Source: Raillietiella orientalis
Lineage: Eukaryota
Reading direction: 5' to 3'
DNA: 64,000 bases
Assembly: GCA_036172245.1 (NCBI GenBank)
Contig: JAYWIR010000030.1
Coordinates: forward strand, 682,001 to 746,000
Position 1 is the first letter of the stretch. Every line of letters begins with the position of its first letter. Shown here piece after piece: positions 2,901-50,507 of the stretch. The notes under the pieces are model-generated. The model saw nothing but the letters and a program-made list of their open reading frames with translations, made no database searches and was not told where the DNA came from. Position numbers and translations under genes: made by a program.

Positions 2901-4445
2901 GATCTCCCTTTAGGTGGTTTCTGAAAGCTTAAGAATCGAGAAGGCTCATCCGTTCGGCTTTTTGCGTGATTTTCCAGCATGGAAAAGAAAAGTTTTTCGG
3001 ATGTTTCCTTGGTTTTCAGTCCATTGCCCGGTTTCACCCGGTTGTTTCTTAGGGATCTTCTCTTTTTTTAATTTTTTTTCGACCCCTCGTTCCAGATGAT
3101 ATCACATGATTGGAACAAATTAAGATCGAGCTTCGGGTTTCTCAACCTGTCAGTGGTACAAGATACAGGTGCGCGCCTATCTCCCATACACGGTCCTTTC
3201 CCGGCCGCAAGTGGTTGGGAAGCTCTTCTGAAGTGCTAAGCGATCTCCTCGCTCTCTCTGGAAACCTTCCAGATCGCGCAAACAGCTTCACACTTTCCCT
3301 GGCGGTTGTTCGGCGATGCTGCTGCTGTTCTAGGATCCCCCTTGCGACTCGCCACCACGGTACGAGAGGAGGTGTGGTGGTCCCCCAACCGCCCCGCATG
3401 CGGAGAAGTGGGAAGGCCTTCACATTGATGACCTTGAGGGACAACGAGATGGCCCCACCCAGTGCATTTCAGAGTGCGACTTGCCAGCCCCTGCAGGGGA
3501 TAAAGAGGACGCCATGAGGATGCCGATGACCTTCCTCCCCTTATCCTCTTCCCCCCCTCCACGTACACACATAAAAAAGTTACATACCTTTTTATTGATT
3601 CATTTGGCACCCCTTTCCCCAATCGCATCCAGGATTCTCGGGACTTTGGCAGCCAACTAGTCCCAGTTGGATTATTATTATTATTTTTGTTTTCACATGT
3701 TTGTTCTTACTGGGTGGTCCTTTTCACTTTCTTAAGCTCCCTGGAAGGAACTGTTGTGCAGTCCCTTTCACCGAGCTGCATCTCTGGTGAGTCGTGTCTA
3801 GTTAAGAACTTTAGCTTGAAATCTGTTTCGTTTCGCGAGGCAGCGGATGCTCGCGAGATACTCGCGCCGCCGGTGTCTTACCGACCCGCGGAGATGAATC
3901 AGATCGCATTCTTTTCCTGCATGTGAGCGCTCAGCGAAGGCTCGGGAAGGCTTCCGTGGACCTCCAGGCAACGTGGGATGTGTCAGAGCGTGTTCCAAAT
4001 CTTTACCCGGAAAGCAAAGTAGAAGGTGTGTTGGGCTGGCATCGGGGTTCCGGGCAGAACGCGGAGAAAACGTTTTCGTCTCGTGAGAGAGGAGTCGCCG
4101 CTCCTTGCCGAAGGAACCGCTTCGGGAAGTCGGTCTGAACGTCCAGTCCCACTCCGGTGCTGTCGAGGCTCCACGATCCGTCTGCTCCACTGTTCGTGCA
4201 AGGCAAAAAAGTCAACTGCGCACGCAGCAATCTGCTGAACGCTTGGGTCGATGAGCACAGTATCCTGAAGACACCATCCGCGTTTCCCGGGGCGTGTTTC
4301 TTTGATGCACTCATTTCCTCTTTGCTGTTGGTTAGTCGCTAGCCAGTCGTTTGGCTGCCAGCATTTCTTTCAAGAATTGCTTGCTCCTTGGCGAGAAGAG
4401 CCTGCCGATGTGTTCGATCCAAAAGGGTTCGTGCGGGGGGGCCAT

Positions 4446-5262
4446 GCCCACGTCGGAGGCCACGTGGTCACGGTCTCCGCGTGTGGCAGCAACAAGAGTC
4501 GCGGGTTCGAATAACCGGAAAGAATCGGCGCAGAGAGATGGAGGTTCGTCGTGGGTTCGCGTTTCTCTCGCGAGATGGCGCTGGGTGGTCTCTCGCGAGA
4601 TGACGCTCCGGGTGCTGCACTGGTAGCGGATAACACCGGATGCCCCTGTCGACTGGCCGTGTCGGAAGTTGACCCTCTGGGATCCTTCCTGAAAGCAAGG
4701 AGCCGGTCGGTTCCCTTCGGGGGTCCCCTCCGGTTATGCAAAGGAGCTTTCCCCTCGCCTTCGGAGGGGACCCTCCGTCTCGTACCATGGAGCTGTTGGA
4801 TTGATGATGCCTCTCCAGTGTACAAAGGATAACGCTGTTGCCTTCGGGGAGCGAACCTTTCAGAGAAACTGGGGAGCATCCCTTCGGGGTTCTCTTTAGA
4901 GGATCAACAAGGAGCAGTCCCCTTGCGGGTTCCCTCCGGAGAAGAAAAAATGGAGCGGTCGCCTCCGGAGAGAATCAGGAAGAGGTTTCCGAGGCGGCAA
5001 CCAGGGCGAAGGTATGTTCCCTTCGAGAGTCCCTCCCAGGCGTGAGGGGAACGGACTTCTTCCTCCAGAGCCCTTCCTGGGTTCATAGGGTGGTCCCCTC
5101 CCGGGGTACCCCCTATCTTGAAGAATTACATGCACCCTCGGGTGGCGTGGACAGCGTGAAAGAGCTGCGTAGGTCGCCAAGTGCGCGACGGTTCTTGAGG
5201 TACTCAGCGAACCAAAAAAAAAAGGAAAACCCGAAAAAAGAAAGAAAGAAAGAAAAAAAAAA
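4446..5262 (+). mobile_element. tRNA-headed SINE-like element, copy 1, with tandem stem-loop body
   Basis: Head GCCCACGTCGGAGGC..GTGGTCA (A-box-like) and B box GGTTCGAATA at 4504. Collinear similarity with 45635-46588. Shared 3' end GAGGTACTYAGCGAACC, then an A-rich tail at 5214-5262. No internal TTTT. Candidate TSD AAAAGGGTTCG at 4421-4431 and 5259-5269. Confidence 0.8.
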
Positions 5263-6739
5263 GGGTTCGCTCTGCCTGACGGCAGTCCACAACGCATGAG
5301 CGATTGCCCTGCAGCCCAGTCGCGGCTTATACGGACGCAGACCCACGCGAAGGGGATTCCATTCGAAAGTGTCCCCACTTTCGGATGGAGCGAGTGGCGT
5401 CCCTGCACAAGGGGGGATCGACGCCGAAGACCTCCCGGTGTGCTGAACTTTTTGTTCAGTTCCGTCTGGATTTTTAGACAGTCCCTTTTGTTGAAGGATA
5501 ATGCGGAAGTTCTCCGGAAGTTCCCATCCATCTTGGGGAGAGAGAAGGAAGGAGTCCAAAAATATCCTCATTTCTATAGTAACGCACAACCATTGCCTGT
5601 TTTTTTTTTTTTTTTTTTAACTTCTCAAAAGCAGCGAAGACAGTTGATCGGGCGCAGTCTGCCCCCGCATGGAGTACGACTAGATCCACATGGGCTCTTC
5701 CTCTTCGTTCAGTGGCTGTTCCCTAGAGCGAAGGGTCGGTTTCGGGGTCAAGTCCTTTCGCTTCGTGGCCCCCGCCCCCGAGTGGGATCCTTGCCACAGT
5801 CCGGAAACTTTCCGCGTGGTGTCCCAGGTGCCCCTTGTCCCTGCCTCTGTCGGGCTAGGGCCTCGACACAGAGTCGAAGGAACTTCTCGTTTTTCTTTTG
5901 CTTGCGGCAGCCCCACAGAGTTCCCTCAGACATTGCCACCCGGTCACGCCAGGCGTTTATTGATTAAAATAAACTCGCAACTCTTGAGGTGGGGTACGAT
6001 ACCTCACCACAGCCAACTCAGCAATGGACCTGCCAGGTCGCAGGTACGCAGACCAGTGGACTCACCTCGGCGGCGGAGGGGGATGGGAGAATACAGAAAT
6101 AAAAATAAATAAGAACGCTCCGGAGGGTCGAGAAGGGATCACTGTCCGCTGGCGAGAGTCCGCATCCTTTCGAGGATGCCGACTAGGTCCGTCCGTATGC
6201 TGCCCAGGTGGGGCCACGTGGCCGCCATCCGCAGAAAGCGGAAAAGCACATTCGATGGCGTCCCTCCCGTTTCTTCCTCTGTCGGCTTCACTTCAAGCCG
6301 CCCCCTCTGGCGTGGTTTTCAAACCTGCCGAGGCTCGGCGTGCGCAGTGCAGCCTGCTGGTATGTGACCAGCGGTTATCGCAGTCCTCGTTTTCCACCCG
6401 GTTTCTCTGGGGCATTTATTATTTAAAAAAATAATAATGGAAGTACGCTTAAATGTTCAAGTGTGGTGGAAAACTTGGTCGCACCACGTACTCGGAACTT
6501 ACCACTTACCACGACCGGTACGCATACTGACGAGGCCCGTTTCCACAGCGACGGGGAAGAGAAAACAATGTGGGGGGAGGGGAACAAAAAAGAGAAAAAC
6601 GGGAGGAAAAGTTTTATTAGGGAGGGGACCGGGTATAGGATCACAATTAGCTGGCAGACATCCTCAGCATCCTGTTCAGGATACTGACAAGTTCAGTCCA
6701 AAGGTTAACCCGGGTGGGACCATCTCGAGGCGGTCTTCA

Positions 6740-8000
6740 AGGAGATCGTCGCCCAGTGGATGACGTCCCTTCCGTTTCGGCCTCTTCTCCTGGCCCTCCA
6801 CGCCGCCGCCATCCCGCGAAGACAGCGGAGCACAGCAAGGGACGCGGCTGGCGGCACGCACGAAGAGGCGTTTGCAAAATGTCCCTGGGGCCGCCGACCG
6901 CGATCCCTAGGGTCGTCGAGAAGCCGACGCCGATGCGGACGGAGGGCGTCGCGGTCCAGCGGAAGGCACGGTCGCAGTCCACGTTGGGCGATTCCCCTTG
7001 ATGGGAGCGATGGGGGCGTAGCGGCAAGATAGGCGATGCGTTTCAACCACGAGGAAGGTGCGTACCCGCGCGGACTAAAAATGACCGGCAGCGCCCGTTG
7101 GTGCTTACCGGCCCGGGTCCTGGCCAAGCGAGCAGCCGGCTCACAAGGACTCACTTCGTTCCTCGTTGACGGCCACCGAAGACTGCCGCGATACGCGGCC
7201 GCTGCCAGCTCCGGAAGACGGTTGCTCAGGACCACGCTTGGACATCCCTCGCCGACGAGCTGTGGTGCCTGGAAACGGAGAGTTGCTTGGACGTGGGAGA
7301 AGATCAGCGGCACGGGTCCGGAAGAAACGCAACGTCTGCGGCGGCGCTCCAGACACGCTCGCTGCTCTCTGAAGGAGATGATGGACTGCCCGTGGGGGAC
7401 CTTCTTGCCGGCCCAGGAAACTCCCCCTGCTGCAACATTGTCGTTCTTGAGGATAGCAAGGACAGCCCCCAGTCGGCAAGATGGAACCGCAAGATCGCAG
7501 GAAAAAATTGGGATGCTGGATGGCGCGTCAACGGGCCGACGCTTCCACCCATCGCCGCCCTCCCCAAAGGGCCTCTCCGCTGGGAAGATTCTCCTTGGAA
7601 ACCCGTTGGAAGAAGTGGAGATCCACGCGGTGTTCTTCGGCAGCTTCGTATTTCCCCTGAATTGGCGGGACTCGACGTGGAGACTGCCGCATCGGGCCAC
7701 TTCACGCAAGGCACGCTCCCACCCCTGGACCAAGGGAAGTGCGGCTCCAGAGTGCGACAGGCGCGGTCAAAGGGAAACAACCCTACCGCACCTGCTTTTG
7801 GAGTGTGTTGCCCTCCGGTGTGCGTGGGGACTTTCGACCACGTCCCCGAACTGCCCAGAAGACCACCTGAGGGCCTCGGTCAGACGCCTCTTTACCGCGT
7901 GGCGGATGTCGCCTGCCGCGATCCCGCGACGATGCATCCGCGGAGCCGTGGCGGCGACCGGAACCGGGGAGCCACCTCCGTCTTCTCGTTCCTAAGGATC
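6740..8000 (+). mobile_element. Decayed L1/Tx1-type LINE ORF2, 3' part (late RT region and zf-RVT zinc knuckle)
   Basis: ORF 7036-7995 contains NWRDSTWRLPHRA and CDRRGQRETTLPHLLLECVALRCAW (cf. CxxC..ETxxHLLxxCxxxxxxW). Upstream are WAIPL (cf. YLGIPL) and VAWTWEKI. Confidence 0.6.
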
Positions 8001-8650
8001 GCGGCAGGGATGGCCGCACCCTGGGACGCAACCAGGAGGAACTTTCCGGCATCCTTGAGAGGATGAGGAGGCCACCAGGGAGCAACCTGCGATCCTTTCT
8101 CTTCACCCCCCCCCTCCTCCAAAAATTTCAGTATCTTTTTTTTTTTTTTTTAAACGAATATGCATTTATTTTGTTTCCCTTCCCCCCAATTTCCCCGCGT
8201 GGACCTCTTCCGGCGACCGCTCTGCGCACGATGCTGCTGCTTCCGCAACATCCGGAAGTAGTGGCATCGTGCCGTCCCTACAGGAAGACTAGGAGATTTG
8301 TTGATGGAAGGATTTATCGGATTTGTTGTATCTTTTGCAATGAACGTCCCGGAGTGAAAGGGTGAAAATATACATGCGAAAAAAAAATGGCGACGGCTGT
8401 GAAGAGGGAAAGCTCGAGAGCCAGAAAGGTCAGGCTCTGGAACTATCTCGGAAAGGGGAAGCGGAAACCAAAAAAAGAACTTCCGGCTCGCTCTCGAGCA
8501 TCCACTTATGCTCCCCCCTTCGCCGCGCTTGCGTCGGAGCATGTCTCCTGCTGCCACGTCAACGAACAGGGAAGGAAAAACCCAGGAGAAAGGCAGCCGC
8601 AAAAAAAAAAAGAAGAAAATGACCAGGTGTGTGGAAACTGTATGAGGGCA

Positions 8651-8681
<31 letters not shown>

Positions 8682-9299
8682 CTCCTACTCCTTATGAATC
8701 GTGCATCTCGGGGAAAAGAGAATACCTCTCCAGCCCTATTCCTGCCTTCCCTCGGAAGAAGCCAGGATGTCCCAGGGGAAACACGGAAAATTTCCTTGCG
8801 GTTTGCAGGGTTTGCAAGTCGGGGGGCCGCGTGAGAGGGGCACGCCGGAGGCCAAGAGGGTCTTCGGGAGGAGAAAGGGAAGTTTGCACCCCCGCTCGCG
8901 CAGGAGTTGATATCCCGGAGCACCAAATCGAGGCTGGTTGTTTCTGTCGGAAAAACTGGCTCCAGGAGAGGGCGTCCGCAAGCCCAGGTTTGGCACCGAG
9001 CACCCTAGGACTGCGCGGACGAGCACCTGCGCGCTACGTCGCACGCGCGCTCTCTGGGCTCTTCCTCCTTGCTCCCTGTGTTTTGTTTCGGCTCGCTTTG
9101 CTCGCATATCCGCCCCCAAGAGTCGCAAGCAAGGGGGGGGGAAGGGGGGGGGAGGGAAATGAAGGGGCAAACAACTGAAAACTACCAGACGGAGCCCGAA
9201 GGCTTCAGCCGAGAGCATCCTTCCCCGAGGCAAGGTTCTTCTGCAGGGACTCGTGGCTTGTGATCACTTCCTGCCTGCTCATTCGTTGCTCGTTGACCC

Positions 9300-10000
9300 T
9301 CTCCTCAAGAATTCAGCCGTCTCGAGGACGGCGATGCCGACCGGCGGGGCCACCCGCGACTTAACACTCCAGGGGGGAGGCACTGAAAGCACGGAATCGC
9401 CTCTGCAGACGGCTCTCTCTCTCGGCTGTGATCTCTTTCGTGCCTTCAGCGGAGCCTCACCGGCCCGCCGATTTCCGGGTCAAGGTCAAGACCCTTCTCT
9501 ACTCCGAACGAGGGACTCTTTGCTGTTCTCTTCTCACGAGCCCGCATTCCTGGGCTTCTTGCAGCGATTCCCCGCCAGAGAGACACCGGGAGGACCAGGT
9601 AGCGAGCGAGGGGAGGAGGAACACAGCCCGAATGTGGGAGGCAATCGCCCCGACGGGGATCTGCGAAGCAGCAGCAGAGATCTCCTCCGTGATGGTCGGA
9701 GAAGGCAAGTTTTCGAGAACAGTGTGAAGGCCCGGCTCGCGGAGGGGGGAAGGAAGGGGGACAGAGATCATCGGACCAGACTGGTGCCCTCAGCCCCTGA
9801 CTCGCGGGGAAATCCTCCGTCCGCTCATCTACTCCGCGTTGCTTCCGCTCTCAGATCCACTCTCTCCCCCTACGGTGCAGCAAGTCAGCGAAGAGTCAGT
9901 GTGGGAAATCGGGAGAGGATCAGGGGCGTCCTCTCTCGAGTGTGGAAGACCGGCCTGGAACTGGACCAGCGTGTTGCTGCCGCTGCGGAGACAGCCTCGA
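9300..10000 (-). mobile_element. Decayed LINE ORF1/gag-like remnant (PRE_C2HC-type)
   Basis: REPGLHTVLENLPSPTITEEISAA resembles the VVLRGLP....EEI motif of Jockey/R1/I ORF1. It is followed, in another frame, by IPCFQCL. Confidence 0.35.
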
Positions 10001-12649
10001 GACAGGTGGGCCTGCTCCCTTAGCCCCTCCCCTCCCTAGGGTGCACTCTTTCGAAAAAGCAGGCTACCTCATCAAGGCATTAGAAGCATGCTGTTCTTTC
10101 GGAACGACTATCGGAGACCAGCAAGACTCGAAGAAGTGCGCGAGCTGCTCAACAGTGTGCAGAAAACAACAGAAGCTCGAGTGATCAAGAACAAGCTTAC
10201 ACCACCCGACCAGCCCTCCTCCTATGGGGCTCTCGCCCCTTGTGCAGATCCCGCAGCCGCCTACTGAATTGCAGCGCGCTCATTGAACAGTGCGGTGGGA
10301 ACTTCTGAGGCAGGCAACAAACGTCCCATAGGGCTGCGACCGTTCGCCAAAGGTTGCCAGGGAAGGCCAGGGCATCCCTCCCCAAGTTGCACTCATGGCG
10401 CCCCTTCTCTGGCCAGCCTGTCGTCGCGCCGTGGGTTGAGCGAGCACTCTAGCGCCGGGGAGAGGGAATCCGGGCGACGCTCCAGTCTCGAAAATAGAGC
10501 TCGAGGACGAGGGATAGCCCGTCGTTAGTCGGATGAGTCGTATGGTCGTCTCCCTGGTCCTTTTCCCTTCCGGGTAGTGCCTGGATGCTGGTATTGTGAA
10601 GTTTCCTCCAGATGCCTGCTAAAGTGTTCTGCAACCGTCTACGGGTTCTTCCTAACAAGAACCTTCGTAAAATAAATACATCAGGATGAATTTGAGAATT
10701 CTCCAAGCATTTCAGTAAACTGGGTATTGAACTTGGTTGTTTTTCTTTTTCGGGTTTCTCTTTCCCGTTCCCCCCCCCCCCCTCACGTTCTGGGAGTGCT
10801 GACCGTTAGTGTATGGGCCCAATGTAACCGAGGCACTGAAATGCCGTTCAGCATGGGTACCAGGTCTCATTGCTGTTTATGACGTTATAGGTGTTGCGAA
10901 ATTATTACTGTTGTTGTTTGAAATCTCCGATCACTTTCAAACAGCTATAATTAACCAAAAACTAAATAACAGGAAATTACATTGCATCCTGCCAAATAAC
11001 CGCTGGTGCCTGTCGAGTAACTCCTTCTGCCTTTCTATGCATTTCCCGGTTGTGGCCGACTTCTGCCGTCTTCCTACTCGCTGGGCGCTGCTGCAAAAAA
11101 GGCGACTCGATGCTTCTTTGCTGCCGACGCGTTTCGAATCTCCACGAACTTCAGATTGCGTCTATCCTGATTTGCATGAGGCGTGGCACTTGCGTGAGCT
11201 TTCGCTCAGTGCTGCAAGTGATCGTGCATAGTAGTAGAATAGAATACCATTCCCGGCCGAGCTTCAGAGGCAGTACGAATCGGGAAAGTCAAGCGAGCAT
11301 GCGTCATACTCGAAGTATGCCGTTGTCCCTTGACAAAATGCGTACGAGTTGAACGCCGAAAATGTGGACTTTGCACGTCGATTAATCACGTACAAGTTGT
11401 ACCTTGTGTTCTCAGCGTTTACTTAAGTCGTTGCATCACCGGAGCGGGAAGCTTCCCCCCTCCCCCCCCCCCATCACTCTCCTTCCCTTCTCGGATCACG
11501 TGGATGCGTAATCACATCTCTGGGATTCTCAGAACCTCGGCTGCTGCACACTTGGCGTGCATGGGGTTTTAAAGAGCCCCCTTTCTCCTTGCGTTCCACT
11601 CGGTGGCTTGGTCTCCTTGGACTCGCAAGCTCTCATGTGCTCTCCTGCAAAACCTTTTGGTGTGGATGCAGACCTACAGAGCAGACCTACATTGTTTTCG
11701 TTGCTTACGGTTAATGTCTTTCAAAAAAAAAAAAAAATTCCCCTGCTCTCACACTTCTAAAAATCCTCTTCATCTCAAAATTAACCTCATCCTGATGGTG
11801 GCGGCGGTTCTGCGCTGCGCCCGCCAGCCTGCTCTCTCTTCGACAGCAGCAATTCGAAATCCACTAATCTCTGACGTCAAACGAATATCGGGAAATTTAG
11901 TGTTGACAACCTCTGTGTGTGCCAAATAATGGCTCCCACAGAGGGTATGTGGATTTCAAATTGCTGCTGTCATCGTTTTCAATTTATCAACCACTCTGCG
12001 TCTTTGGGTATTTTTTTTTTTTCCTTATTATTATTATAAGGCGCACCCACACCCAGGACGCGTATGCAGTTCACGAAGACACCTGTATTGGGAATGGTGA
12101 CTCATGCTTGGATTTAAAGGTGCAAGCCTTCAGAGATGCGCAGATCCCACACCTTGTTTTGCTTTCGTTTAGCTGTGCATGGAGGCCCGAGACTCTGAAT
12201 CTCAGTGTTTCAAGACAACACACAGGAAACACGATGGGGTATTCGTCGGCCACCGTCAGTCCAGGGGAAGCTCATTGATTGAGAGTTGCGATTTTGTTTC
12301 GCTCGGCATCGTTCCGGCCGAAGAAGTGCAAGGCTAGTTTTCGCTTCGTTTCCTCCTGTTGAGAGGTGAAAAGACCTTGGAAACTGGCCTCTTTCGTAGA
12401 TGGACGAATTTCTGCCGAACAGAAAGACTAGCTGACACAAAAAAGGCAAAGACTTCCGTAGTGCCAGGGTTAAAGTTGTTTGAATCTGATCTCGTCATCG
12501 AATGATGCATCCACAGAGAGAGAGAAAAAAAAAAAAGGGCTCCAAGGACCGAACAGCTATCTGGTGGTATTATGAATGCAGGCGTAATCAGAAGAGCATG
12601 TGAGACGCAGAGGCGTTTTTCGTAGATGAGTAAACTCACAGGCATTCAA

Positions 12650-15096: not shown

Positions 15097-15127
<31 letters not shown>

Positions 15128-21050: not shown

Positions 21051-23015
21051 CGGGAAGAAAAAAAATCTGCGTCTTTGGCTTACACGGGGAACGGATGCAG
21101 AACAGGGCCCGTTCGAAGTACATTACATGCAGAACGCCTTTCTGCGAAATACGTCGAATTTCTGTAACGGTCGGATGCATTTTGCATTATGTATGGTAAC
21201 CAATTCCGGGCTTTTCTTAAGGGTTTCGAATTACTTAAGCGTATCTTTCCTAAGAGGTTTTTTCCGTTTCGTATCCTTATGGGTGCTTTGTGCGTGCATA
21301 AGGACACAGTTTACTGCTCCTGTCTGTTCTGCCCCTTCATGTCTGGAGGTTGGCTGAGTAGTTACGTTACATTAAATACCAGAAATCCGATATTCAGAAG
21401 TTGTTGGTTCTCAGTGTAATGAATAAATAAGACCACTTGAATTACATGCGAGTCATTTGCATTTCTCGAAACCACGTAGAGGTGTCATATGTAAGTTTTG
21501 TGCTGAAAGTATGGATTCAAGAGGAAATGGGCAAAGTAAGGTAATGGTATAATGGGGATCCGTGTTTCTGTAACCTCACTGGAATGCGCTTTTGAAAATG
21601 CAAATTGCATTATCTGCTTAAGACGAGCACAAAAAATGCAGCTCTCGATCAGTGGTGATTTCTTTATATGTATAAAAAAAAAAAAAAAAAAAAAAAAAAG
21701 GCCATTGAAGCAACATGAGCTTTGCCTTGAATTTTGTGTGTGTGTGTGTGTTTGCGAATAATGGAGATTTTAATTTGAGAGTTAATCGTCTGCACATGTT
21801 CTCTGTAATGTGGCGAAATAGCAGTTTGTGGATGGTGTGCCGAAATGCTGCTCGTCCTCGTTCTCCGATGATTTGAAACCCTTTTGGCACCGACGTTTGA
21901 CTGTAAACTTGGCGTTGTGATTCGGATTTTCCCAAGTCGTTGCTACGATTTGGAAGGGTTGCCCCGTTCCTTTAGCATTTGATGAAACGTGAACTTTGTA
22001 CACCCAGATAGCAAGCAGTACATTTGCCTGGACAGAAAGATGTGTAAAAATATCGACCCGATCCTCGCCCGATTCGTATGCACAGTTTCATTTCTTAAAT
22101 CAAAACTGGTTCGTTTTCAGAAGGCTACCTTTAGTGTGTCTTCTTTTATATTCATTCGTAACGGATGTTTTCTTTCTTTCTGTCTTTCTTTCTTTTCTTT
22201 TTTTTTGAGGGGGGGGGGGTCGAAGTTTATTTAGCCCAGTGCTGGTGGTTAGGAGTTGAGGCATTTTCTTCCGTATGCGCGAGCAAAAGGTTTTGACTGT
22301 TCTCATATGCTGCTGACTGTTTCCATGTTTAATTGATGCATGTAAAAGCAAAAGAAGCCGCGATTTGCTCGAATTACGGGTCCAAAAGCAAACCCCGCGT
22401 GGTACACCTTAACTGCGGTTTGAGTTTTTCTTGTGCCTTCTGGTCGCGAAGAATTCCATGTTGATTTGATCGTAAGAGTGCTGCTCTTCACAGGGTCAGG
22501 TCCAGTGGCTCAGCCACCTTTGAAGTAACTCGTACCGAATCTGCTCGAGGAATCGGTGAAGGGGTCACTTTTCGCCGTTTGTGACCTTGTTGTGTGGCTG
22601 CCATTCGCCTGTGGATCGGTAGTTTCATTTCCAATTGCGTAAATGAAACTTTGTCTGTGGCAGACATGTTATCCAGAGATATCTTTATGAAGTGTTTGAA
22701 AAAGCAAGCATAGCGTTTTTTCTTTCCCCTCCCCCCCCCCTCCTCCCATTTTCTTTCCTGGAAATGCTTGCATCAGCGACTTCTTACGAAAACGTTAGTA
22801 TTTCTGGTCCAGCATTAGTGCCTTATAATTGTGTTCTTGGAGACATATCTTCAAGTTGTAGATATGTGCGGATTGTTTATCTAATGATTTGTTTTTGTTT
22901 TTTTTGTTGTTGTTGTTGTTTTTTTTTTTTTTTTTTTTTTTTTTGCGTGATATTTGGCTTTGCTGCATGCTGATTGCGAGTTGCTTTTTAGGTTTCATTT
23001 GGTTTTTGGATCCTC

Positions 23016-23357: not shown

Positions 23358-24025
23358 ATGTCTAATGTAGTGAGACACAAAGCTACATCGCGACCCGCAC
23401 CGTCGGAGATCGAATACAAACAGTTTCGATTTTTAATTATGGACCGACCGACAGATGCTACGATTGCGAATTTCATCCAGGTTTGATTGAGATGAAGAGG
23501 AGGGAGGGAGGGGTGCACGAGCTAACAGCCTTCTTAACTCTTTACTTGTTTACCCAGGAACTGCACAAACACAATGTGCGGGATGTGGTAAGGGTGTGTG
23601 AGCCTACTTATGACACCGAAGACCTGTGCAAACACGATATCGACGTTATTGATCTGGAGTTTGGAGATGGTGGTTTTCCTCCTGCCGATGTGGTAGAGCG
23701 CTGGTTTAGTTTGATAAGGAACCGATTTCAAGAAGACCCAAGGGCTTGCATCGCAGTCCACTGCGTTGCTGGATTAGGCCGCGCCCCTGTGTTGGTAGCC
23801 TTGGCACTTATCGAGCTCGGGATGAAGTACGAAGATGCTGTGGAGCTGATACGCGAGTAAGTCGTGTCTGTGTTGTCCTTTGCGAGCTTTCCTCATGCTG
23901 CATCCGCCAGGAAACGCCGAGGTGCTATCAATTCGAAGCAGCTGTCCTTTTTGGAAAAGTATCGTCCCAAATCTAGACTTAAAATAAGAAATGGTCATAC
24001 TCGAAACGGTTGCAGCGTACAGTGA
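23358..24025 (+). CDS. PRL-1: Protein tyrosine phosphatase type IVA (PRL-1)
   Basis: Exons 23358-23480, 23558-23856 and 23911-24025 (GT-AG introns of 77 and 54 nt). Motifs [14 protein letters not shown], catalytic [10 protein letters not shown], polybasic [10 protein letters not shown] and C-terminal CAAX CSVQ. AATAAA at about 24135. Confidence 0.97.
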
Positions 24026-24949: not shown

Positions 24950-27900
24950 TCGGGAAAGTTCAAGCCCCGGTCCAGCGTTGCAGGCACGCGGGGTTGACGA
25001 AGTTTTGCTCCCTGGCGCCGCCGACATCGATACGCTGCGGAGATTTGCGTCAACGGCGCCACCTGCAGCTTCCCGCCTGCATCATTTGCATCCATGCAAG
25101 CGTTGTTGGGAGGTGCCCACGGGATTTCGCTTCACATATTTCGAAGGACGTCTCGAATTCAGGCAAACCGCGACCTATTGATTTTACATGCGTGGACATC
25201 CTGATTCGAGGTTCCGGATCCGAAAATCGTTTTGTACGATGCTTGCAGGGGTCTCAGTCGGACCCAGGCGACATCACCATCCAAGAGGGGCAATCCGCCG
25301 CCAGTGCAGGAATTCTTCAGCGGAAGGAGCGTGCGTGTTTCCGGTGCGTTTCCATTGCCTTACCTTGCTCCGCGTCTGCAACCGCAATCGGGTGCGCCAC
25401 CACAGTCAAAGGCAGGCGATGTAAAAGGTTTCTGGGATGTGTCCAGATGTGATGTCCGGTAACATACCTCGGAGCTCTTGGAAATATCTTTCAGCATCCG
25501 GAGCGCTCTTTGCTGTGATGACTGACCGCTGTTTTCGTAAACAGGATTGAGAGGAAGTTGATATGTATTGTTCCCTGATGCAGAGCTCCTTTTTCAAACG
25601 ATTCCGAATCGTGTTCCTTTTGAAGGGAACCGTACACTTAAATACCATGTCATCTGAGGAGGCGGGGAAGCTCTTCGCCCAGGCAGGGGCCGACTAGAGT
25701 GGATAAGTCACACGCATAGGGAACCCGCGATGCAGCCTCCCGAGGAGGCTCGCCATCTCGAAGACTCCACAAGCGTTCGGCACTCCGCCGCCCCACATGG
25801 GTGCCAAGGTACCGTGACGTCACCGATTGCTTTCCTTTCGGGAGAAACCTGTATCTGCAATCGAAACGGGCCCAGCCGAACGTGAAGACCATCGGCAGTG
25901 AGAACAGGAGGCGTATCTGTGGTGTTTGTATTTCCCACTTTGCACGAATAGCAAAGGCACTGAATACGCCACCAATCCCCTACGGAAAAGTACGTGCCTG
26001 CCGCTGCAGCGAAGGAAAGTCGCATCATTGTACCGTGGGTTTGTGTACGCAGAACGCGCAAAGCGTGATTTCTGAAACACGGATGATTTCAAGTTACTCA
26101 AAAATAGCTTCAGCACGTGATTTAGAAGGGAAAAAAAAAAAAAAAAAGGAAACCAACCTCGGCAAAAGGTTTCCGGGATTCTGTAACAAAAAAAAAAAAA
26201 AAGGGAGAGGGGGGAACTGTGTGCGTTTTTCATTTCGTAAAAGACTTTTTTCTGTGCTATTTGCGAATGTTCTGCGCGGATTTTCTGTGCACTACGCTCT
26301 GATACTTCGTCGCACAGAAGATCATGAGATGCAAGAAAATCGCCGCTGTCAAGACAACGGCACTATTAGCATCATGAGACAAAACGCGTTTTTCCTTAAG
26401 CTTCCTGGTCTATGTATGCAGCCACGCTGATCTTCCGCTCCTCCTCGACCCTATGAAATTCAGGTCCGAAAACCAAATCCGAAAATCTCGTTCAAAATAG
26501 CGGAAAGAAGTTGGGCATTCAGCAGGATGCCGAAGTTCTTTCTCAAAATTTGATAGGAATGGTTTTCTTCGTTTTCGCCCGCTTCGTGCCATTGCACCAT
26601 TCGATGCCGATGGAACCGACGTGGCGCTGAAGGGATCGAACACGAGGAGGAGGAGGAAAGAATCGCATATGAGCAGAGATGAATTTTCTATAGATAACCA
26701 TTAGTCAAACAAATGGACAGTTCACATTTTGCTAGGACCACACGTTGCACAACCGCGCTCGAGATCGGCGCGTCACGATCACTGTACCAACTGTACAAGC
26801 TTTTCGACTTTGAAGTTCGGAAAACAATCCAGCGGGGTCGGACGAAACCCGTAGGCCAGAGCCCTGCCGGCAGTCTTCGCTCTCACTTTTGGGTCCACGA
26901 GCCTGCTCTTCTTGCTCTCCGGCGTCCTTCTGGTTCCCAGTCGGATCCAGGGCATCGCGCTCCTTTCAGGCTTCTGGTTCCCGCAGCCACTCGCATCCCC
27001 TCTGCGTGAGCCTTCTTCCGCGCCAACCATGCGGATCTTCCGAGAGGGAGGCAAAAAGTTTCCTCGACGTCTGCTGCTGCACAGTCGCTGTACGGCTGGC
27101 GCGCGGCTCGTTTTTGCGAGCGTCCCTTTCCAGGCAGGGCGAACTTTGGCGAGGAACCTGCATCCCCGGACGATGCTCTGAATTTTCCCCGTAACCATGG
27201 TTTGCGGGCAGCCGAGTAAACAGTCTTTCCCAACGAGGGAACCCACGCTGCTGCATGGTCTGCTTGCGCTACCCGCCAGTAAAACACCTTGAAATAAATG
27301 CTGCTTGCGCGTGGATCAGTTTGTCGAAAAGACGAGTTTTCAAAATGAGAAGGTGCCTCTTCCTCTTGGTTCATGGTTGCTTATGAACCCGAAGCCGGGA
27401 GGAGCTTTTCCTTGGGCGCTCCGTACACGAAGGACTTTCCCTGGCAGTGAGTGTACTCCGCAAATGTCTCGAGTGAAATCTTGTTGCCTGGCGCTAAGAT
27501 CATTTCCATCGGTGCATGAAGATGCAAGCAGTTGTGATAGAAAACCTCATTGCTCATCTTTTGCTTCAAGCAAAGAGCTTCCGGTGAATCGGATGGGATA
27601 TCAAGTTTCCCAATCTCGTACAAGTGCAGTGCATCCTGGGATACGCCGTGCTATCCATAGCGGGAAGCAGTTCGTCGCAGGAATCAATTTGCCCCTCGTA
27701 ACTTGGGTGCTTCCCCTAGGTTTTATCCAGTCCTCAAATTACAACTGATCCCCGATCTTGCCGCTTGTAGAATCAGGAGTCAGTTGGTGTATTTGATGCC
27801 GAAAGCTGGTTTTTTTTTTTTTTTTTTTTTTTGTTTGTTGGTGTATCATCGGCAGTCGTCCGGTGGAAAACCTCAAGAGCGGAGAGAGGACGGTATGCTG

Positions 27901-28400
27901 GAGTTATTTTTACGTGAGCTTTCTCTCCGACGTTTCGTTGGGAGATCCTCAGTGAATGTGCCGAACCCGTCCTTCCAGAATCAGTGACGCAATGGCGTAG
28001 TCGAAAATTTTTCCTCTTCCTGAGATACTATCCGCACGGCGCGGATGCTCTTCACGCGACCAACAACGAAATGCCAGGTATCTCTGCCGAGGTGAGCAGT
28101 GGAGGTCTTAGGGAATGGCGGCGCGCGCGACGTAGACCGAGGGATGGTTATTTTTAGAAAACAGCCGGAACCAGAATCAACTCCCGTGTACAATAATGAA
28201 AACGGGAACACAACTGCGTGTGTACACGTCGGCCAATTCGGTTGCCTCGCGAGCGTTTCGGAGAAGCGCGCCGGACAGACACACAGAAACCGAGAGCCAA
28301 TCGGAACCCCACCGGATGTGCCCCACATCGTACCAAGTGGTACGGTGTACACGAAACTTCAGCCAGCCTCTCTCGTTGCCAACCAGCCCCCTCCCGCCTT
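24950..28400 (-). mobile_element. Long decayed LINE ORF2 (CR1/L2/Jockey-type), GC-rich
   Basis: Ordered minus-strand remnants: linker KPWLRG (about 27200), RT FSAFAI, RFLPKGKQSV, GEPPREA (cf. GVPQGS) and SSDDMV (cf. YADD) at about 25650. Interrupted by stops and homopolymer runs; limits approximate. Confidence 0.4.
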
Positions 28401-30481
28401 CCTTCTCGGCGTTCCGAACCCCAAGTGGGGAGGTTGTTGCATGCTACCGGCCGAGACTTGCGCTCCCTGTCGAGGGCCCGCGCGGTAATGGATAGGGAGG
28501 GCCACGTTGGGAAAAACCTGGGTTTCGCAGCCCCGAAGTCCCGGACGAGCCTGGCTCCTGGACTCTGCTCAAAGCCTGCGGACGATTGCCAAGGCGAAAA
28601 GACGGGAGGCTGCGTTCCCGGAAGCGCGCGCGCCTTGCTCCCCAAAAGCCATTGCGCGGTGTGGCAAGCCTGCTCTGCTTCTGCGGCGCAGGATGAAAAC
28701 CGAGGGGTTGGTGTCGGCGAGCACCTCCTCTACTCGACGCCCCCCCCCCCCCAAAAAAAAAAACAAAAACAAAAACAAAAACAAAAAGAAATCAGAGGAG
28801 TTTTTCCCGTTCCGCGGGCGGGAGGAGGCAAATCGAATGTGCCGAAAAAGAAAGTCCTGCTCTCCCCTCCTTGGATGGCCTGGAGTCAACGGGGACCGCG
28901 CGGGCGGATCGCGCAGCACGGAGAGCGAAAAGAGAGCGGCGGCTCTCGGGCCAGCCGATCCACCACCACCACCCTCTTCCGCAGCCGAGCGCGAAGCGCA
29001 GACTCACCATCCAGCATGAAAATCCGACGTGCATCCGCATCTTCTCCCTCAGACCTCACGCTCCGTGGGCGCTGCTGCCGTCTCTGATTATTGCGTAATA
29101 CTGGAGGCGTCCTTTTGTACATATGCTGCCACAAAGAATGCTGTCGTAAATAAGACTGGTCAGCGATGCGTTAACGTAATTTAGGAGGAAAGAGAGGAAG
29201 GTCCTGTTGCAACCCGCGATGCCGTTGAGCGGAGCCTTGGCGCGACAGGACGGGAAGTCGGCGTTTCAGCGTTCCGCCGATGTGTAATGCCTAATTGCTG
29301 TGTGTTTGTTGCGTGCGTCCATGCGTTTTCCTCTCTCCCTCTCTGCGAAGACGCGCCAGGCGTAATTGGACGAGCGTTTCCCAGAAAGAGGTTGCATAAA
29401 CCCGGGGCAGAGTGGCGAACTTGCCGTCCCCGATCCACACCCGTCGGAGGATCTCCTCCACCGCGAGCGACTCGCGCGCTCCGCGGGTCCCACGGAACCG
29501 GTCACGCGCGGGCCGCCCCGCGTCCGCCGCGAGAGCTGCCGCCGCCGCCACCACCCCCACACACACCCCACCCCACTGCCGAACGAGTCGACGAGAGGTT
29601 CGGGCGGCGGGTCCACCGTTCTTCCGTGCTAGGAGGACTGCTCGAGGGTCCCTCGCGGTCGCACCACGACTCCGGACGACGGCGCGCTGACCCTCGAAGA
29701 GGGTGGTGGTCGTCCAGTGGTCGTTCGGAGGGGGTCGCCTGCTGGGGAAATCCGTTGCTGCGAAGCAGAGGAGGAGGAGGAGAGAAAAAGTTTCCTGTCC
29801 TCCCATCTGCTCCGGGCGGTGGCTGCGACCCGACCGCAAAAACTCGACCGCGTCGCGCGTGCGCGCGCCTCTCTTTTCGTGGACGACGGGACTCACGGGC
29901 GGGAGGGAGGAGGAGGAATGCAGCGCATGCTTGCGTCTGTGAGCACGCAACTTCCGTCAGGTCCAACTCTTGCGCGAGGTGGCTGAATCAGCGATCTTGA
30001 TGAATGCATCACCCAATTTGAATGGGGGGGGGAGAGAGGAGGAGCTCGGGAGAGAACACGAAGGGGAGAGGAACAACAAAGAAGCGACGAACGCGCCAGG
30101 CAAGAGCAGAGGCAAAACAAAGCAAAGACATTTTTCCTCGCGACCTTGAGCTCTGGAGCGCTCACGGGAGGCGTTGGCAACCGCGTTCCCAGGCGTGTTC
30201 CGGGAAGAGCGCGACCAGCCAGCCCCCCACACGCACACACACACTCTCGGCGTTGGGGCGAGCGGGGCAAGGTAGCGCGACTGTGATCCTTGGACGAGAT
30301 CCTTGGAGGGAGGCTGTAAGCCAGGTGGTCGGCGGTGGTGCCGCAGGAGGGAGGCAGGGGCAAGGAGAAAATCCCGCGCACGGCGGGGTGCTCGGTGGGG
30401 CGAGGGGATGGGTGAGTGGGAAGGCGGCGTTCCCGTCGCTTGGCGCTTCCTTCCGCGAGCGGCCGGCGGAGCCGCGCGCGT

Positions 30482-30642
30482 CCCGTCACTCCCGCCAGGC
30501 ACCATTAGGACAGCGCCTTCAGGGGACCCAGCTGCCAATGCCCGGCCCGGCTCCCCCAGTCAGCCCCCTCCCCGCCCTTTCGGAGTCCTCCCTCTCGGCC
30601 GTGAGTCCCGAAAAAAGAGAGGGGGAGGGGATCGATAGCTGC
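30482..30642. repeat. Dispersed direct repeat, copy A (about 160 bp)
   Basis: Aligns with 32229-32379 (16 mismatches over the first 72 positions, by eye). Both copies end in GGGATCGATAGCTGC. Confidence 0.85.
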
Positions 30643-32228
30643 TTCTGCTCTCCGCGGGGGCACGTGCAAAGGGGAAGTCTCAAGGGGTCGGCAGGAGGAG
30701 GGCGAGAGAGGGAAGAGGCCGACCTCCTCGGCCGGGTGGAAGGAGCACCAGTAAGGCAAGGAGGGAGGAGGGGCGCTCCTTCACAACTCGGGAGAAGGGT
30801 CCTCGGTCGGATGCGTGGGTGGGTAGAGATGGGGAGGCGGGCGGGGGAGACAGGACTTTAGAGGCACTCTGCAGTGACCTTCGGGGTCGGAAACACAGCA
30901 ATGCCGTCGAGAAGGTGCTGGGAGAGAAAGGGAGGGGGGGGGGAGGCAGAGCAAAGACGCGACCCCGCCGTTCTCTGGAAGAACAGCAGCCGGCTTCAGG
31001 AAGTGGGTAGCCCCTGCCTGTGGTTGCGGTGGCCACAAGCCGCTCGCGTAACCTCGGAGCGGGAAGAATCTCGAACGAACCAGCGGGATCGGAAGGAGGA
31101 AAGGGGCGGGAGGAAGTCTTTGAGTTTGCTCCCGAGGCGGACAGGCTCTCCGAAACCATGGCGACAGGCGGCAGCGAGCTCTGCCGAGCGAGAGAGCCCT
31201 CGAGAAAGGGCAGCGGCGAACGAGAGATCGACCCGCTCCATCCCCCCCTCTCCAAGGCGCTCCTACGGGAGCCGCAGGTCGCTTCGGGGTGCCAACCGGC
31301 ACTTCCGCGGTTTCTTCTTATCGCCCCGGGGGGTGAGCGCTCGTTCGCGACCGCAGGGGGGAGAGGACGCCCTCTCCAGGTCGCAAGCTTACCGCAGAAA
31401 CCGCCGCTCCGAAGAGGCGAGTGGGAGGTGCAGGGGTTGGAGTCGCGCACGCCCCTGTCCTCTGGTGCCTCCTCCCTTCGACCGGGGCGCGGTGCCACGG
31501 TTCCTACTCTTCTCCCCCTCCCCCATCCCTTGCGAGGGCGGCGGCTGCGGCTGTCAGCGGGGAAAACGCCCGAGGGAAGCAAAGTGCGCGCCAAACGGTC
31601 CGTCCTTTACCCCCCCCCCTCCCCCCGATCTCTCCTCTTCTCGGCGTTTTGGAGACAAAAAACAACAACAAAACCAGGGGAGGGGGGGGGGGAACACCCG
31701 CCTGGAGCCAATCAAAGTCATCCGCGTGCACGCATCCTCCGCCGACGCCTTCCGCCGTTTCCGGTAAGCTGCGTTCGCCTCCCCCCTCCCCCCCCCTTCC
31801 CGGGCGCTCACGAAATCGTAGGCGGTTCGCAACCACCCACGGGACCGCGCCCCTGCCGCTTGCAGCAGCGACGTGGCAACTGCGCCTTCGCATCCGCTAC
31901 GGAAGTGGAAACACGCTGCTGGGGAGAGGAGGAGAGGAGAGGAGAGACTGAGGTAGGGTGGGGGGAACGGGAAACCCAGGAATCCATGTGCACGAGAGGG
32001 GATACGGCGCTTGACGTCACGGTCCTACGAAAACACCCGGTGCATTCCCGGGACATTCAAAACCTCCCGTGGGAGCTTCGAGTTGAGGGAGGGGGGAGTC
32101 GCAGAGGGAGGCTCCTACATTTGGGGGAGGGAGGGGGGGGGAGGCCGAGCCCAGGAATGGTGCCCCCTCCTCTTCCTTCAGTCCCGAGTGCCCGCCCAGG
32201 GGAAGCAGTGGTGCCGCCGGCTGCTGCG

Positions 32229-35898: not shown

Positions 35899-35958
35899 CG
35901 TGTTGCCTTGTATCAAAAATAAATAAAGTAGTTTCATCTGGAATTATGGTTATTTATT

Positions 35959-41445
<5,487 letters not shown>

Positions 41446-44759: not shown

Positions 44760-47700
44760 GTGAATAGGAAAACCTTGTGAAAGAAACCACGTATGTAGTG
44801 TTGATGCTTGTGTTTATGATTTGGAAGCATATTTTTTAGTCTAGGAGACTGGGTTCGCACGGATTCCTGGTCTTGTGCCAAGACAACTGTCTTGGCACAA
44901 GACCTATCTGGTGTATCCTCCAGTAACAGAGCATGGGATCGCACAGTGTGTAAGACTCATACCTCATGAGTTTGGAACAGGAACAGCATGGAACTGTGAT
45001 CTAAATGTGCCAGGAGCAGTCGGTCTTCTCCTCGGCTGCCCAGGTGAACGCTCACGCTGAGACCACGGCACTCGTGTTGCACACGAGCATGGCAATGTGG
45101 GCAGTGTGGTCGTCAAATGCACCACCAGTGGTGAGAAGGAACGAAAAACTTGTCATCTTCAAAATTCAAGTAGTGGATGTAACCATCCTGAAAGTGTGCC
45201 CGGAATTTAAGCATTCAAGATAGGACCAATAAAACTGTCAGCTGCGAGAGACATACATTGTAGAAAAAGAACGCGAACTTTAAATGGATCTGGGAATTGT
45301 GCCACACAATCGAGGTTTCGTAGTCTACATTGACTAAAAAAGTACAGAAAGTCTTGCTGAAAAAGACATCAATTTCAGCAGCCAGATCGTGGGCAGTATA
45401 GGGAAGGCCACGACCATTGCAGATCTCCAGTCGGGAAGAGTCGGACATGAATTCCATACGAACCAATTGGTGGTCACGAGAAACTCGAAAGGAAGTAAAG
45501 GATGTGCGATTCCCCAGCCTGATGAGAGAGATCTTCAGCTAGAGGATCCTCATAATCAGACTGGATGAGGATGCGTTCGTTTCAGGATTCGCCAATATGG
45601 ACTCGCTACTGGGAAGTGACGATAAAACACAACAGCCCGCGTCGGAGGCTTTGTGGTTAAGGCTTCCCGCGTGGCACCATGCGTCGCGGGTTCGAATACT
45701 TGGGCAGATAACTTGACGCCACTGCGTCGTTTGGGTTCCGAGTTTCTCCTACAACGGCGCTGGTTGGCCGAGACATTCGGGCGTGGCCCCGGCGGTGGAT
45801 AAAGCCGGCGGCCTGCCGATGAAGGCCGGAACAATGGGAGTCGACCTTCGGGTCCTCCCAGGAATAAAGGAGTGGGGAGTACCCCCTCCTGTGTGCAAAG
45901 GAGAGTGGACCCCCGTCACCGGGGGGACCGCCTCCGGTTTCAAGATGGAGCAGGAGCCCTCACGGGCACCTCTCCAGTCGTTCAAAGGAACGGACCCCCC
46001 TGTTGGGGGGTCCCTCCGAGTCGTCGCCTCTTCACAGAGTGTGTACAAAGGAAAGAAGCAAAGCGAGAGCGATTCCCTGCGGGAAGCTGCAGCGCCCCTT
46101 CTGAGTTTCGGAAGCACCCCTGTGGGGGTTGCCTTCAGAGGAGTGAATAAAGGAGCGGTTCCCTTGCGGGTTCCCTCCGGAGAAGAAATTCCTAGAAGCG
46201 GATCCTTTCCGGGTTCCCTTCGGAGAAGTTGAAATGGAGAGGACCACCACCCCGCAAGGGGGTGTGTGTCCCTCCGGAGAGAATGAGGAAGGAGAGTTCC
46301 CTTCGGGGTTCCCCTTCGGAGACAACCAGGGTGGGAGGTGAGATCCCCCCCGTCCGGGGGGGATCCCTCCCCAAGCGTGAGAGGAACGGACTCCGAGCCC
46401 TTCCTGGATTCAATAGGGCGGACCCCATCCCGGGGTGCCCCCTATCCTGAAGAATATTACACTGAAGAATTACACGCCCCCCCCTGCGGGTTGCCGCGGA
46501 CAGGCATGGAAACAAAAGTGTGTTAATGTTTAAAAAGAGCAACGCGCGCCGCGAGGCACGCGACCGGCTCTGAGGTACTTAGCGAACCAAAAAAAAAAAG
46601 AAAACTTTTAAAAAAAAAAAAAAAGCTGGAAGGAAAACAGCGAAGACAGAAGAAAAAGAAGAACCCAAGGATTACCATCGTCCTAGGCCAATAGTAACGA
46701 TCTCCTCGTGGGGTCGCTACTGGCCTTTTAAAAAAAAAAAAAAAAAAAACACAACAGCCCACGTTTTGCACGGGATGAAAGCAGTTCGGCCAATTAGTAG
46801 CAGCTTGTTGTAGGGCGAAATGTTACAAGTGTAGTCAGGACGATCATCTGCACGCTGCAGATGATCGGCCTGAGCAGCTCTAGTTGCACCCAGCCAGAGA
46901 AGTGCTGCTTCCGCAAGTTGATGTGGCACAAGAAGAGGGATTTTGCACTCGGTGGCTTCGACTGCAGAGAAATGCACAAACCCGTAAAAGAGGCGCACTG
47001 TGAGACAGCAGCCACATCGAGAACGAACCGAATGCAACACAGAACCTGACCACAGACAAGCACCTCACCGAATCAGCAGGAAGGGAAAAGCAAGAAGAAA
47101 ATGAACAAGTGTGTCGCGCAAGCGCCGGAAAGTGTCACAAATGACGAAATGGTGCAAACCCAGCCGGATAATTAAAAAACACAAAGACTGGATTACCACT
47201 GCATACAGAACAGAGATGCCATAATATAGCCAGATAAACTCTTGCGACGAGTGCACGACCTGCTCTGTGCAGTTACAGGGAAGGTTACCAGAAAAAAGTA
47301 CACGGTTGCAGACTGCAAGACCAGACCAACGAGGTTTGCTACTGCAATCAACCCCCCCTCCTCCCCCCAAAAGTACGAAAGATCCAAACAGAGCCAAAGA
47401 ACTACGACCGAATTAAATGGTGGTGGCAGAGGCTAGCGGATACACAGCTGAACTGACAAGTTAATGTGTAGACCGTGAACGGAAGCGCTGAAAATCCAGA
47501 CTGAAGAGAATCTCATGCAGACATGGACTCCGATCGATTCCAATTAAGGAAAGGACTGACATCAGCAGAGGGGAAGCACTTCAACGCGAAACCCAAGTGT
47601 GCCAAACAGAGACATGGCCTTGCTGCTGCAAAACAAAAAGTGCAAGGTTCATCTGAATCCCCAACGAATGTTTCGGATCAGAAAGCACATGACCATTCAG

Positions 47701-50444: not shown

Positions 50445-50507
50445 GCATTGAAGGAGCTGAGTGTGTTGTGACACAAAAAGTGAAAATTTGATATGAAATA
50501 AGAAAAT

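Follow-up and report, generated by a model that had tools for sequence, protein, structure and literature searches.

What kind of element gave rise to two GC-rich, hairpin-rich loci in the genome of Raillietiella orientalis, and are their hairpins kept by selection? The loci were analysed in a window of 64,000 nt (assembly GCA_036172245.1, contig JAYWIR010000030.1, positions 682,001 to 746,000 of the forward strand; all coordinates below are those of the window). The first, copy 1, occupies 4432-5258, and a homologous, longer copy 2 lies 41 kb away on the same strand at 45639-46749. The favoured reading, with a probability of roughly 0.68, is that both loci belong to one non-coding, non-autonomous poly(A) retroposon family, a long relative in kind of the short interspersed elements (SINEs), and that they represent two source subfamilies. 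The element is judged to belong to a fairly ordinary family of the SINE-like type, with an unusual length and an array of GC-rich palindromic modules that varies.

Insertion marks and homology of the two copies

Copy 1 (4432/4446-5258) is a genuine retroposed insertion with an A-rich tail and a target-site duplication. The stretch 4400-5300 is about 60% GC, and on either side of the insertion, at 4421-4431 and 5259-5269, stands the same 11-nt word, AAAAGGGTTCG, as an exact direct repeat. A shared word of 11 nt was obtained in 0 of 5000 shuffles of the downstream flank. The parts of copy 1 are listed below.

4421..4431, + strand: 5' target-site duplication, AAAAGGGTTCG, identical to 5259-5269 (0/5000 shuffles)
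4432..4445, + strand: G-rich 14-nt 5' extension, not present in copy 2, that separates the duplication from the conserved head
4446..4514, + strand: head, with a long hairpin at 4446-4487, the A-box-like AGGCCACGTGG at 4457-4467 and the B-box-like GGTTCGAAT at 4504-4512
4515..4663, + strand: spacer from the head to the module array, 58-64% identical to copy 2
4664..5130, + strand: body, a degenerate array of GC-rich hairpin modules with the linkers GTGTACAAAGGA, CTCCGGAGAAGAAA and CTCCGGAGAGAAT and four CTTCGG
5131..5213, + strand: 3' end region, ending in TGAGGTACTCAGCGAACC, with a terminal hairpin at 5190-5213; the 3' end is common to both copies
5214..5258, + strand: A-rich tail with a (GAAA)n pattern
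5259..5269, + strand: 3' target-site duplication, pairing with 4421-4431

Copy 2 ends in an uninterrupted A20 and is enclosed by an exact 11-nt duplication of its own, CACAACAGCCC, at 45628-45638 and 46750-46760 (0/5000 shuffles). A preliminary description of this DNA, made from the letters alone, had noted flanks like target-site duplications in both copies, and the two exact 11-nt repeats bear this out. The parts of copy 2 are as follows.

45628..45638, + strand: 5' target-site duplication, CACAACAGCCC, with AAAA just before it, identical to 46750-46760 (0/5000 shuffles)
45639..46588, + strand: core, made up of the head, the spacer and clean, arrayed GGAG...CTCC modules with C-run/loop/G-run tops
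46589..46624, + strand: first A-rich tail, with TTTT at 46606-46609
46625..46749, + strand: extra 105-nt 3' piece and A20, comprising a strong hairpin at 46685-46726, then TTTT, then A20, within the same target duplication
46750..46760, + strand: 3' target-site duplication, pairing with 45628-45638

AAAA begins or precedes the target duplication in both copies. The duplication of copy 2 directly adjoins the head and ends in GCCC, the 4 nt that also make up 4446-4449 of copy 1. This overlap may reflect microhomology at the junction of a slightly 5'-truncated copy 2. The only TTTT of copy 2 are those at 46606 and 46726, within the tail region. The hairpin of the extra 3' piece has a folding energy of -19.4 kcal/mol (z -3.8). 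No second copy of the 105-nt piece was found in the window by blastn, and it had no Rfam match above noise. The piece would come either from the source locus, as a 3' transduction, or from another polyadenylated RNA joined on by template switching, possibly the 3' end of a partner long interspersed element (LINE).

The two copies align collinearly over their whole length. The head, linkers and 3' end are shared as the preliminary description had stated, and each named motif occurs exactly once per copy (positions in copy 1 / copy 2): the head motif GTCGCGGGTTCGAATA at 4498 / 45683, the linkers GTGTACAAAGGA at 4818 / 46041, CTCCGGAGAAGAAA at 4934 / 46175 and CTCCGGAGAGAAT at 4963 / 46272, and the 3' end motif TGAGGTACTYAGCGAACC at 5196 / 46571. 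The last 18 nt are near-identical between the copies. The shorter core of copy 1 was also confirmed, with 768 nt (4446-5213) versus 950-954 nt (45635/45639-46588). When a joint nhmmer profile was built from the two copies, it matched them with E values of 1e-220 or lower. Neither blastn nor this profile found a third copy or fragment in the window.

The homology bears directly on the explanation that two GC-rich, hairpin-rich stretches beside genomic A-runs resemble each other by chance, with no mobile element involved. Long A/T homopolymer runs are indeed frequent, with 17 of at least 12 nt in the window. However, full-length collinear homology with such E values to the joint profile is not matched by chance resemblance, and in both copies the exact 11-nt duplications lie precisely at the head start and the tail end. 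The other homopolymer runs have no upstream sequence in common with the copies or with one another. The chance explanation is effectively refuted.

Identical bases were found at 493 of 734 aligned positions (67%), and the differences comprise 134 transitions, 107 transversions and 26 indels. Of the gaps in the alignment, 20 (224 nt in total) fall in copy 1 and 6 (31 nt) in copy 2. Identity is uneven along the element: head and spacer have 58-71%, the first part of the body falls to 38-62%, and 4911-5154 reaches 72-95%. The CpG observed/expected ratio is 0.89 in copy 1 and 0.80 in copy 2, versus 0.51-0.66 in the AT-rich background.

The preliminary description had proposed that the copies come from distinct source loci rather than by decay from one master, and the comparison of 67% identity and 26 indels with two perfect duplications and an A20 argues indirectly for this proposal. 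Under decay from one master, each copy would have changed by about 16%, and the chance of an intact 11-nt duplication after insertion would be 0.84^22, about 0.02 per copy and about 5e-4 for both, an arithmetic of our own that carries some ascertainment bias. The perfect duplications together with 67% identity thus indicate that most of the divergence arose between source elements, that is, between subfamilies. Both insertions appear to be young relative to their mutual divergence and to derive from different source elements.

A skew was seen among the transitions in the alignment of 4446-5210 with 45635-46592. Pyrimidine transitions number 85 versus 49 purine transitions, and T in copy 1 opposite C in copy 2 was counted 51 times versus 34 times for the reverse. 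The skew could come from G-U tolerance, strand-biased mutation or alignment noise.

Transcription signals and class of the element

None of the 16 open reading frames (ORFs, at least 90 aa) that overlap the copies contains a Pfam family. Most gap lengths in the alignment of the copies are not divisible by three, and every frame is broken by indels. The copies are therefore non-coding. No reverse transcriptase or endonuclease domain was found in the 148 ORFs scanned (the 16 overlapping the copies and 132 elsewhere in the window), and the ORF that marks an autonomous LINE is thus missing among them. As in SINEs, the element is non-coding and non-autonomous, and both copies have an A-rich tail and a target-site duplication. 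Its length without tails is 768 and 950 nt, whereas SINEs are usually shorter, roughly under 600-700 nt. The element does not belong to the strictly tRNA-derived SINEs for two reasons: ARAGORN and Rfam recognise no tRNA in its head, and its length is too great.

The head contains promoter-like motifs. The B-box-like GGTTCGAAT occurs only in the two heads within the 64 kb (2 matches versus 0.64 expected), and the A-box-like AGGCNNNGTGG lies 47 nt (copy 1) and 43 nt (copy 2) upstream of it. The most conserved motif of the head is the T-arm/B-box-like GTCGCGGGTTCGAATA, which is identical in the two copies and is surrounded by sequence of 58-71% identity. TTTT is absent from both cores, as had been described. 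Its absence is weakly unusual, with P(0) of 0.18 and 0.04 in dinucleotide shuffles, and AAAA is present three times in each core versus no TTTT.

The likeness to tRNA-His that the preliminary description saw in the head was not supported, since ARAGORN and Rfam gave no tRNA match. ARAGORN found no tRNA gene in the window, and lowering its thresholds to 80% brought up none in the heads either; calls in the heads appeared only at the 70% threshold, where the output is meaningless. Rfam gave no tRNA match in the copies even at E<=10. With Rfam 15 at the gathering score there were no matches in the whole window, and the copies showed only noise (E 0.2-7). Of a tRNA, just one T-arm half (the 5' one) and the loop, GCGGGTTCGAAT, can be recognised in the head.

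From these features the following course of mobilisation is proposed. A source copy would probably be transcribed by RNA polymerase III (Pol III) from the B-box-like and A-box-like motifs of the head, and the T4-free core would let the transcript run to the A-rich tail. The endonuclease and reverse transcriptase of a poly(A)-recognising ('relaxed', L1-like) LINE would nick an A/T-rich target; both duplications begin with AAAA. Priming on the A tail would then allow the RNA to be copied, leaving duplications of 11-15 nt; the insertion signature itself is directly visible in both copies.

Several points weigh against a Pol III-transcribed SINE-like family. At 768-950 nt the element exceeds the length range of typical SINEs. 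No tRNA or other small-RNA origin could be demonstrated for the head with ARAGORN and Rfam. The A-box-like motif is weak and fits 9 of the 11 positions of the consensus. The significance of the TTTT absence is weak, and the two copies are not independent of each other. A Pol III start usually lies nearer to the A box than in copy 1, whose 5' end precedes the conserved head by 14 nt and is farther from the A-box-like motif. Copy 2 runs 120 nt beyond the T4 at 46606-46609, which a Pol III transcript often does not do. In addition, two copies are known, both within the 64-kb window, and no partner LINE was found in the window.

A retroposon of another origin has to be considered here, namely a composite or LINE-derived non-autonomous element transcribed by RNA polymerase II (Pol II). 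It could be SVA-like, or a LINE with deleted ORFs and structured untranslated regions, and the B-box-like motif would then be incidental. The length of 768-950 nt, the variable-length GC-rich module array and the G-rich 14-nt 5' extension of copy 1 all suit such an element, as do the passage of copy 2 through T4 to extra 3' sequence before the final A20 and the lack of a tRNA-like fold detectable by ARAGORN or Rfam. It is harder to reconcile with the identity of GTCGCGGGTTCGAATA between the copies amid 58-71% identity, and with the absence of TTTT from both cores. Moreover, the window contains no LINE sequence or reverse transcriptase as a source, and Tandem Repeats Finder detected no tandem array in either body. 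A Pol II origin is considered unlikely.

No exact match to the 3'-end motif was found in the metagenome contigs or genome contigs scanned, and none to the head pattern in the genome contigs or viral contigs scanned. Comparison of the translated spurious ORFs of the element with protein collections gave 0 matches among 754 candidates and otherwise three unrelated repeat proteins. No similar element was found in the literature searched for five element motifs and for SINE/tetraloop descriptions, Repbase, Dfam and SINEBase being outside this search. A 21-mer of the most conserved linker led to two bacterial-looking metagenome contigs. They were rejected as chance matches (53% and 71% GC, similarity limited to about 30 nt or less).

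Hairpin modules and structural constraint

The modules of copy 2 are regular, each built on a GGAG...CTCC base that carries a C-run/loop/G-run top, whereas those of copy 1 are much less regular. The module size is about 25-50 nt. GGAG...CTCC hairpins number 19 per strand in the window, and 9 (+) and 8 (-) of these are within the two copies, so that such hairpins are also present in other GC-rich DNA of the window. In agreement with the at least four CTTCGG described for 4700-4890, this sequence was found at 4715, 4759, 4842 and 4882, all on the + strand. By blastn, one module of copy 1 aligns with copy 2 twice, at places separated by 50 nt.

When the whole elements were folded, z was -4.1 for copy 1 and -5.6 for copy 2. 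Local folding of the bodies, with base pairs limited to 60 nt, gave z of -3.06 (copy 1) and -4.73 (copy 2) on the + strand, and -3.36 and -4.43 on the - strand. Three other GC-rich segments of the window gave z of -1.1 to +1.2. The count of strict Watson-Crick hairpins in copy 1 is barely above that in shuffles (43 pairs versus 31). By these folding predictions, the hairpin excess is real. Because it is equal on both strands, the hairpins are essentially Watson-Crick palindromes, and they show no strand-specific sign of RNA-level pairing.

Two further observations concern individual hairpins. All eight CTTCGG are oriented on the + strand. This orientation was considered as a mark of RNA-level selection and rejected, because an ancestral TTCG loop is possible and two of the eight are linker variants. 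In the spacer of copy 1, at 4565-4602, the 14-mer TCTCTCGCGAGATG is directly duplicated at a spacing of 24 nt and has a self-complementary core. The duplicated 14-mer forms a predicted hairpin at 4560-4605 (-24.1 kcal/mol) without a counterpart in copy 2.

According to the preliminary description, the hairpin scaffold is kept under structural constraint while the sequence turns over. The scaffold is indeed kept in the head hairpin, in unit 1 and in one 3' hairpin, but not in most of the others. Among the 16 hairpins of copy 2 with dG<=-9, 3 have a similar energy in copy 1, 7 are weaker and 6 are truncated (0-15 nt) or absent. Several times the GGAG/CTCC base is left in copy 1 without its hairpin top.

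Constraint was measured by reading the structure of one copy into the other through the alignment, with four settings. Divergence was 0.30-0.33 in stem columns versus 0.33-0.38 in unpaired columns. The substitutions are thus not concentrated in loops, and the result is close to the even spread over stems and loops that the preliminary description had named as refuting its view. Compensatory double changes numbered 11, 7, 12 and 5, versus null means of 8.2, 6.6, 9.1 and 7.7. When the pairs of copy 2 were followed in copy 1, 91 were unchanged, 33 were kept and 49 were broken by a one-sided change, and 11 were kept and 11 broken by a two-sided change. Hairpin loops coincided within 4 alignment columns in 3 of 12 cases versus 2.3 expected from circular shifts. 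In strand-symmetric stems, G:T and A:C mismatches number 4 versus 1, which is too small to use. With stem and loop divergence even and compensatory doubles at the null level, structural constraint is largely not supported, as judged by conservative, low-power tests on two sequences whose alignment is unreliable where identity is 38-60%.

The fold of the aligned pair was also compared with column shuffles. The consensus-fold energy has z of -3.5, none of 60 shuffles being as low, but the structure conservation index is 0.40 versus 0.36 for the shuffles. The signal comes mainly from alignment columns 1-200 and more weakly from 201-500. At the other end of the element, the conserved 3'-terminal stem-loop that marks stringent-type SINEs is not shared: the hairpin directly before the tail (5190-5213) has -10.4 kcal/mol (z -2.4) in copy 1, and its counterpart in copy 2 has -3.1 (z +0.5).

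Three structures look conserved, and they are the only ones. The head hairpin (4446-4487; -26.7 kcal/mol, z -3.8) has predicted energies of about -25 to -27 in both copies. Its 15 pairs are paired in 29 of 29 cells, versus 33-62% when the partner is slid, and its changes comprise one compensatory (A:U to G:C), three G-U-preserving and no disruptive ones. Unit 1 reads GGAAG...CTTCC in copy 1 and GGGAG...CTCCC in copy 2, as had been described, with a two-sided A:U to G:C change at the third pair. The hairpin at 5085-5116 / 46413-46445 has 3 substitutions and 1 indel between the copies, yet its energy is -19.9 kcal/mol in each.

These three structures are the ground for another explanation, close to that of the preliminary description. 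The two loci could be processed retro-pseudogenes of a structured non-coding RNA gene family, with paralogues under RNA-structure selection. The fully paired head hairpin with its one compensatory and three wobble changes, the compensatory change in unit 1, the maintained energy of 5085-5116 / 46413-46445 and the consensus-fold z of -3.5 would all be expected from such genes. In contrast, no Rfam family matches the copies, stems and loops diverge about equally with compensatory doubles at the null, and the coincidence of loops is not beyond chance. The loss or truncation of 6 of the 16 copy 2 hairpins in copy 1 and the failure of copy 2 to keep the 3' terminal hairpin of copy 1 also argue against it. 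As the folding excess is equal on both strands, DNA-level palindromes fit as well as RNA structure. An origin from RNA genes is very unlikely. Selection on the hairpins as RNA structure is at most a possibility, and the alignment supports it only locally.

The simplest account of the body, as judged from the alignment, would be a diverged array of palindromic modules with gain and loss of units and tops. Copy 1 is roughly copy 2 minus 224 nt in 20 blocks, and these blocks coincide with whole modules or hairpin tops. The body of the SINE-like retroposon would consist of GC-rich palindromic modules in which a GGAG...CTCC base bears a C-run/loop/G-run top, often with UUCG-type loops, and the number and length of the modules would shift between subfamilies by gain or loss of whole modules or hairpin tops. 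C-run/G-run tops could pair at any exact length, and pair-by-pair selection on the stems would not be required. Slippage, unequal exchange, or skipping of a polymerase or reverse transcriptase over stable hairpins are possible routes of gain and loss.

A bolder version of the family is doubtful. In it, the element would represent a long Pol III retroposon of a new kind. Its fast-remodelling array of UUCG/GNRA-capped hairpins would be kept by RNA-level selection, and its 105-nt piece would be the 3' end of the partner LINE, acquired by template switching. If so, the hairpins might serve transcript stability, binding of a partner-LINE protein or a role as decoy double-stranded RNA, and subfamilies would exchange the sequence of their stems and gain or lose entire hairpins, with the architecture of the array maintained. 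Should covariation in the hairpin array hold genome-wide, the family would offer a useful natural example of how selection acts on SINE RNA structure, and of hairpin loss by polymerase skipping. For the SINE-like family as favoured here, the main value is annotation: an animal genome gains a non-autonomous retroposon family, of two or more subfamilies, that had not been listed before.

Genomic surroundings and comparison with known systems

The window is animal nuclear DNA with a background of 29-40% GC, in which the copies sit in or form GC-rich islands. The family would explain these two islands in AT-rich, gene-dense DNA. The neighbouring genes are listed below.

35962-37142 (-): SUZ12 exons (zinc, VEFS-box)
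50502-51341: intronless Jun-type bZIP ORF, best matches centipede and insect AP-1, 53-54% identity
51655-52011 (-): cyclophilin exon
60890-61975: RFC2 exons, 56-60% identity to nearly all animal matches listed

No protein in the collection is more than 54% identical to the Jun-like ORF, which indicates that the host lineage is poorly sampled. Judged by the Jun and RFC2 matches, the DNA comes from an animal and possibly from an arthropod. A Methyltransf_16 exon lies within the region 35031-37142, which it shares with the SUZ12 exons, and a weak dual-specificity-phosphatase-like ORF is present at 23366-23857. Large GC-rich blocks occupy 5620-10200 and 27830-32500 (52-66% GC, CpG observed/expected about 0.97); no Pfam domain was found in the ORFs scanned there. 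The second block contains a 123-nt direct repeat at 30482-30604 and 32229-32351, with 76% identity and 1747 nt apart. Pure T or A runs of 17-29 nt occur at 5600-5618, 8651-8676, 15099-15127, 21674-21699, 22919-22944, 27810-27832, 60136-60152 and 60379-60395. The long A/T runs were considered as tails of related elements and rejected, because the adjoining 400 nt are similar neither to each other nor to the element.

Compared with tRNA-related SINEs, the element differs in its head, which ARAGORN and Rfam do not see as a tRNA, and in its length of 768-950 nt. Its body also differs, being an array of GC-rich palindromic modules and not a unique or LINE-derived core.

SVA of hominids is a non-autonomous composite with a poly(A) tail, a target duplication, L1-type insertion and length-variable GC-rich internal repeats, and some of its copies carry 3' transduced or extra sequence. 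The present element is like SVA in being non-autonomous, in its tail, its duplication and its proposed L1-type insertion, in its length-variable GC-rich internal region and in the extra 3' sequence of copy 2. Unlike SVA, it has no Alu-like or retroviral parts, and its modules of about 25-50 nt are too diverged for Tandem Repeats Finder. Its B-box-like head also suggests Pol III and not Pol II.

Chimeras of the U6/L1 type arise by template switching during LINE reverse transcription, and in T+ SINE tails a TTTT terminator precedes the poly(A). The second unit of copy 2 (105 nt with hairpin, TTTT and A20), which lies inside a single duplication, is like both. Unlike in the U6/L1-type chimeras, blastn found the 105-nt piece nowhere else in the window, and its Rfam matches stayed at noise level.

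For the rapeseed SINE SB1, passages of PMC2408557 describe RNA stem-loops that bind the double-stranded-RNA-binding protein HYL1. By analogy with those passages, a stem-loop-rich SINE transcript, such as the present element may produce, could act through its hairpins; this is offered as a lead only.

Passages of PMC3747384 distinguish 'relaxed' mobilisation, in which poly(A) is recognised, from 'stringent' recognition of a 3' stem-loop with compensatory changes. As in the stringent LINE/SINE pairs of those passages, copy 1 has a hairpin (5190-5213) directly before its tail, and the last 18 nt are near-identical between the copies. Unlike in these pairs, the hairpin is not kept in copy 2, and the long A tail is as in the relaxed type. 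The relaxed L1-type poly(A) SINEs outlined in PMC3747384 resemble the present element in being non-coding, in the B-box-like 5' head and the A-rich tail, in duplications of 11-15 nt that start with A's, and in diverged subfamilies from different sources.

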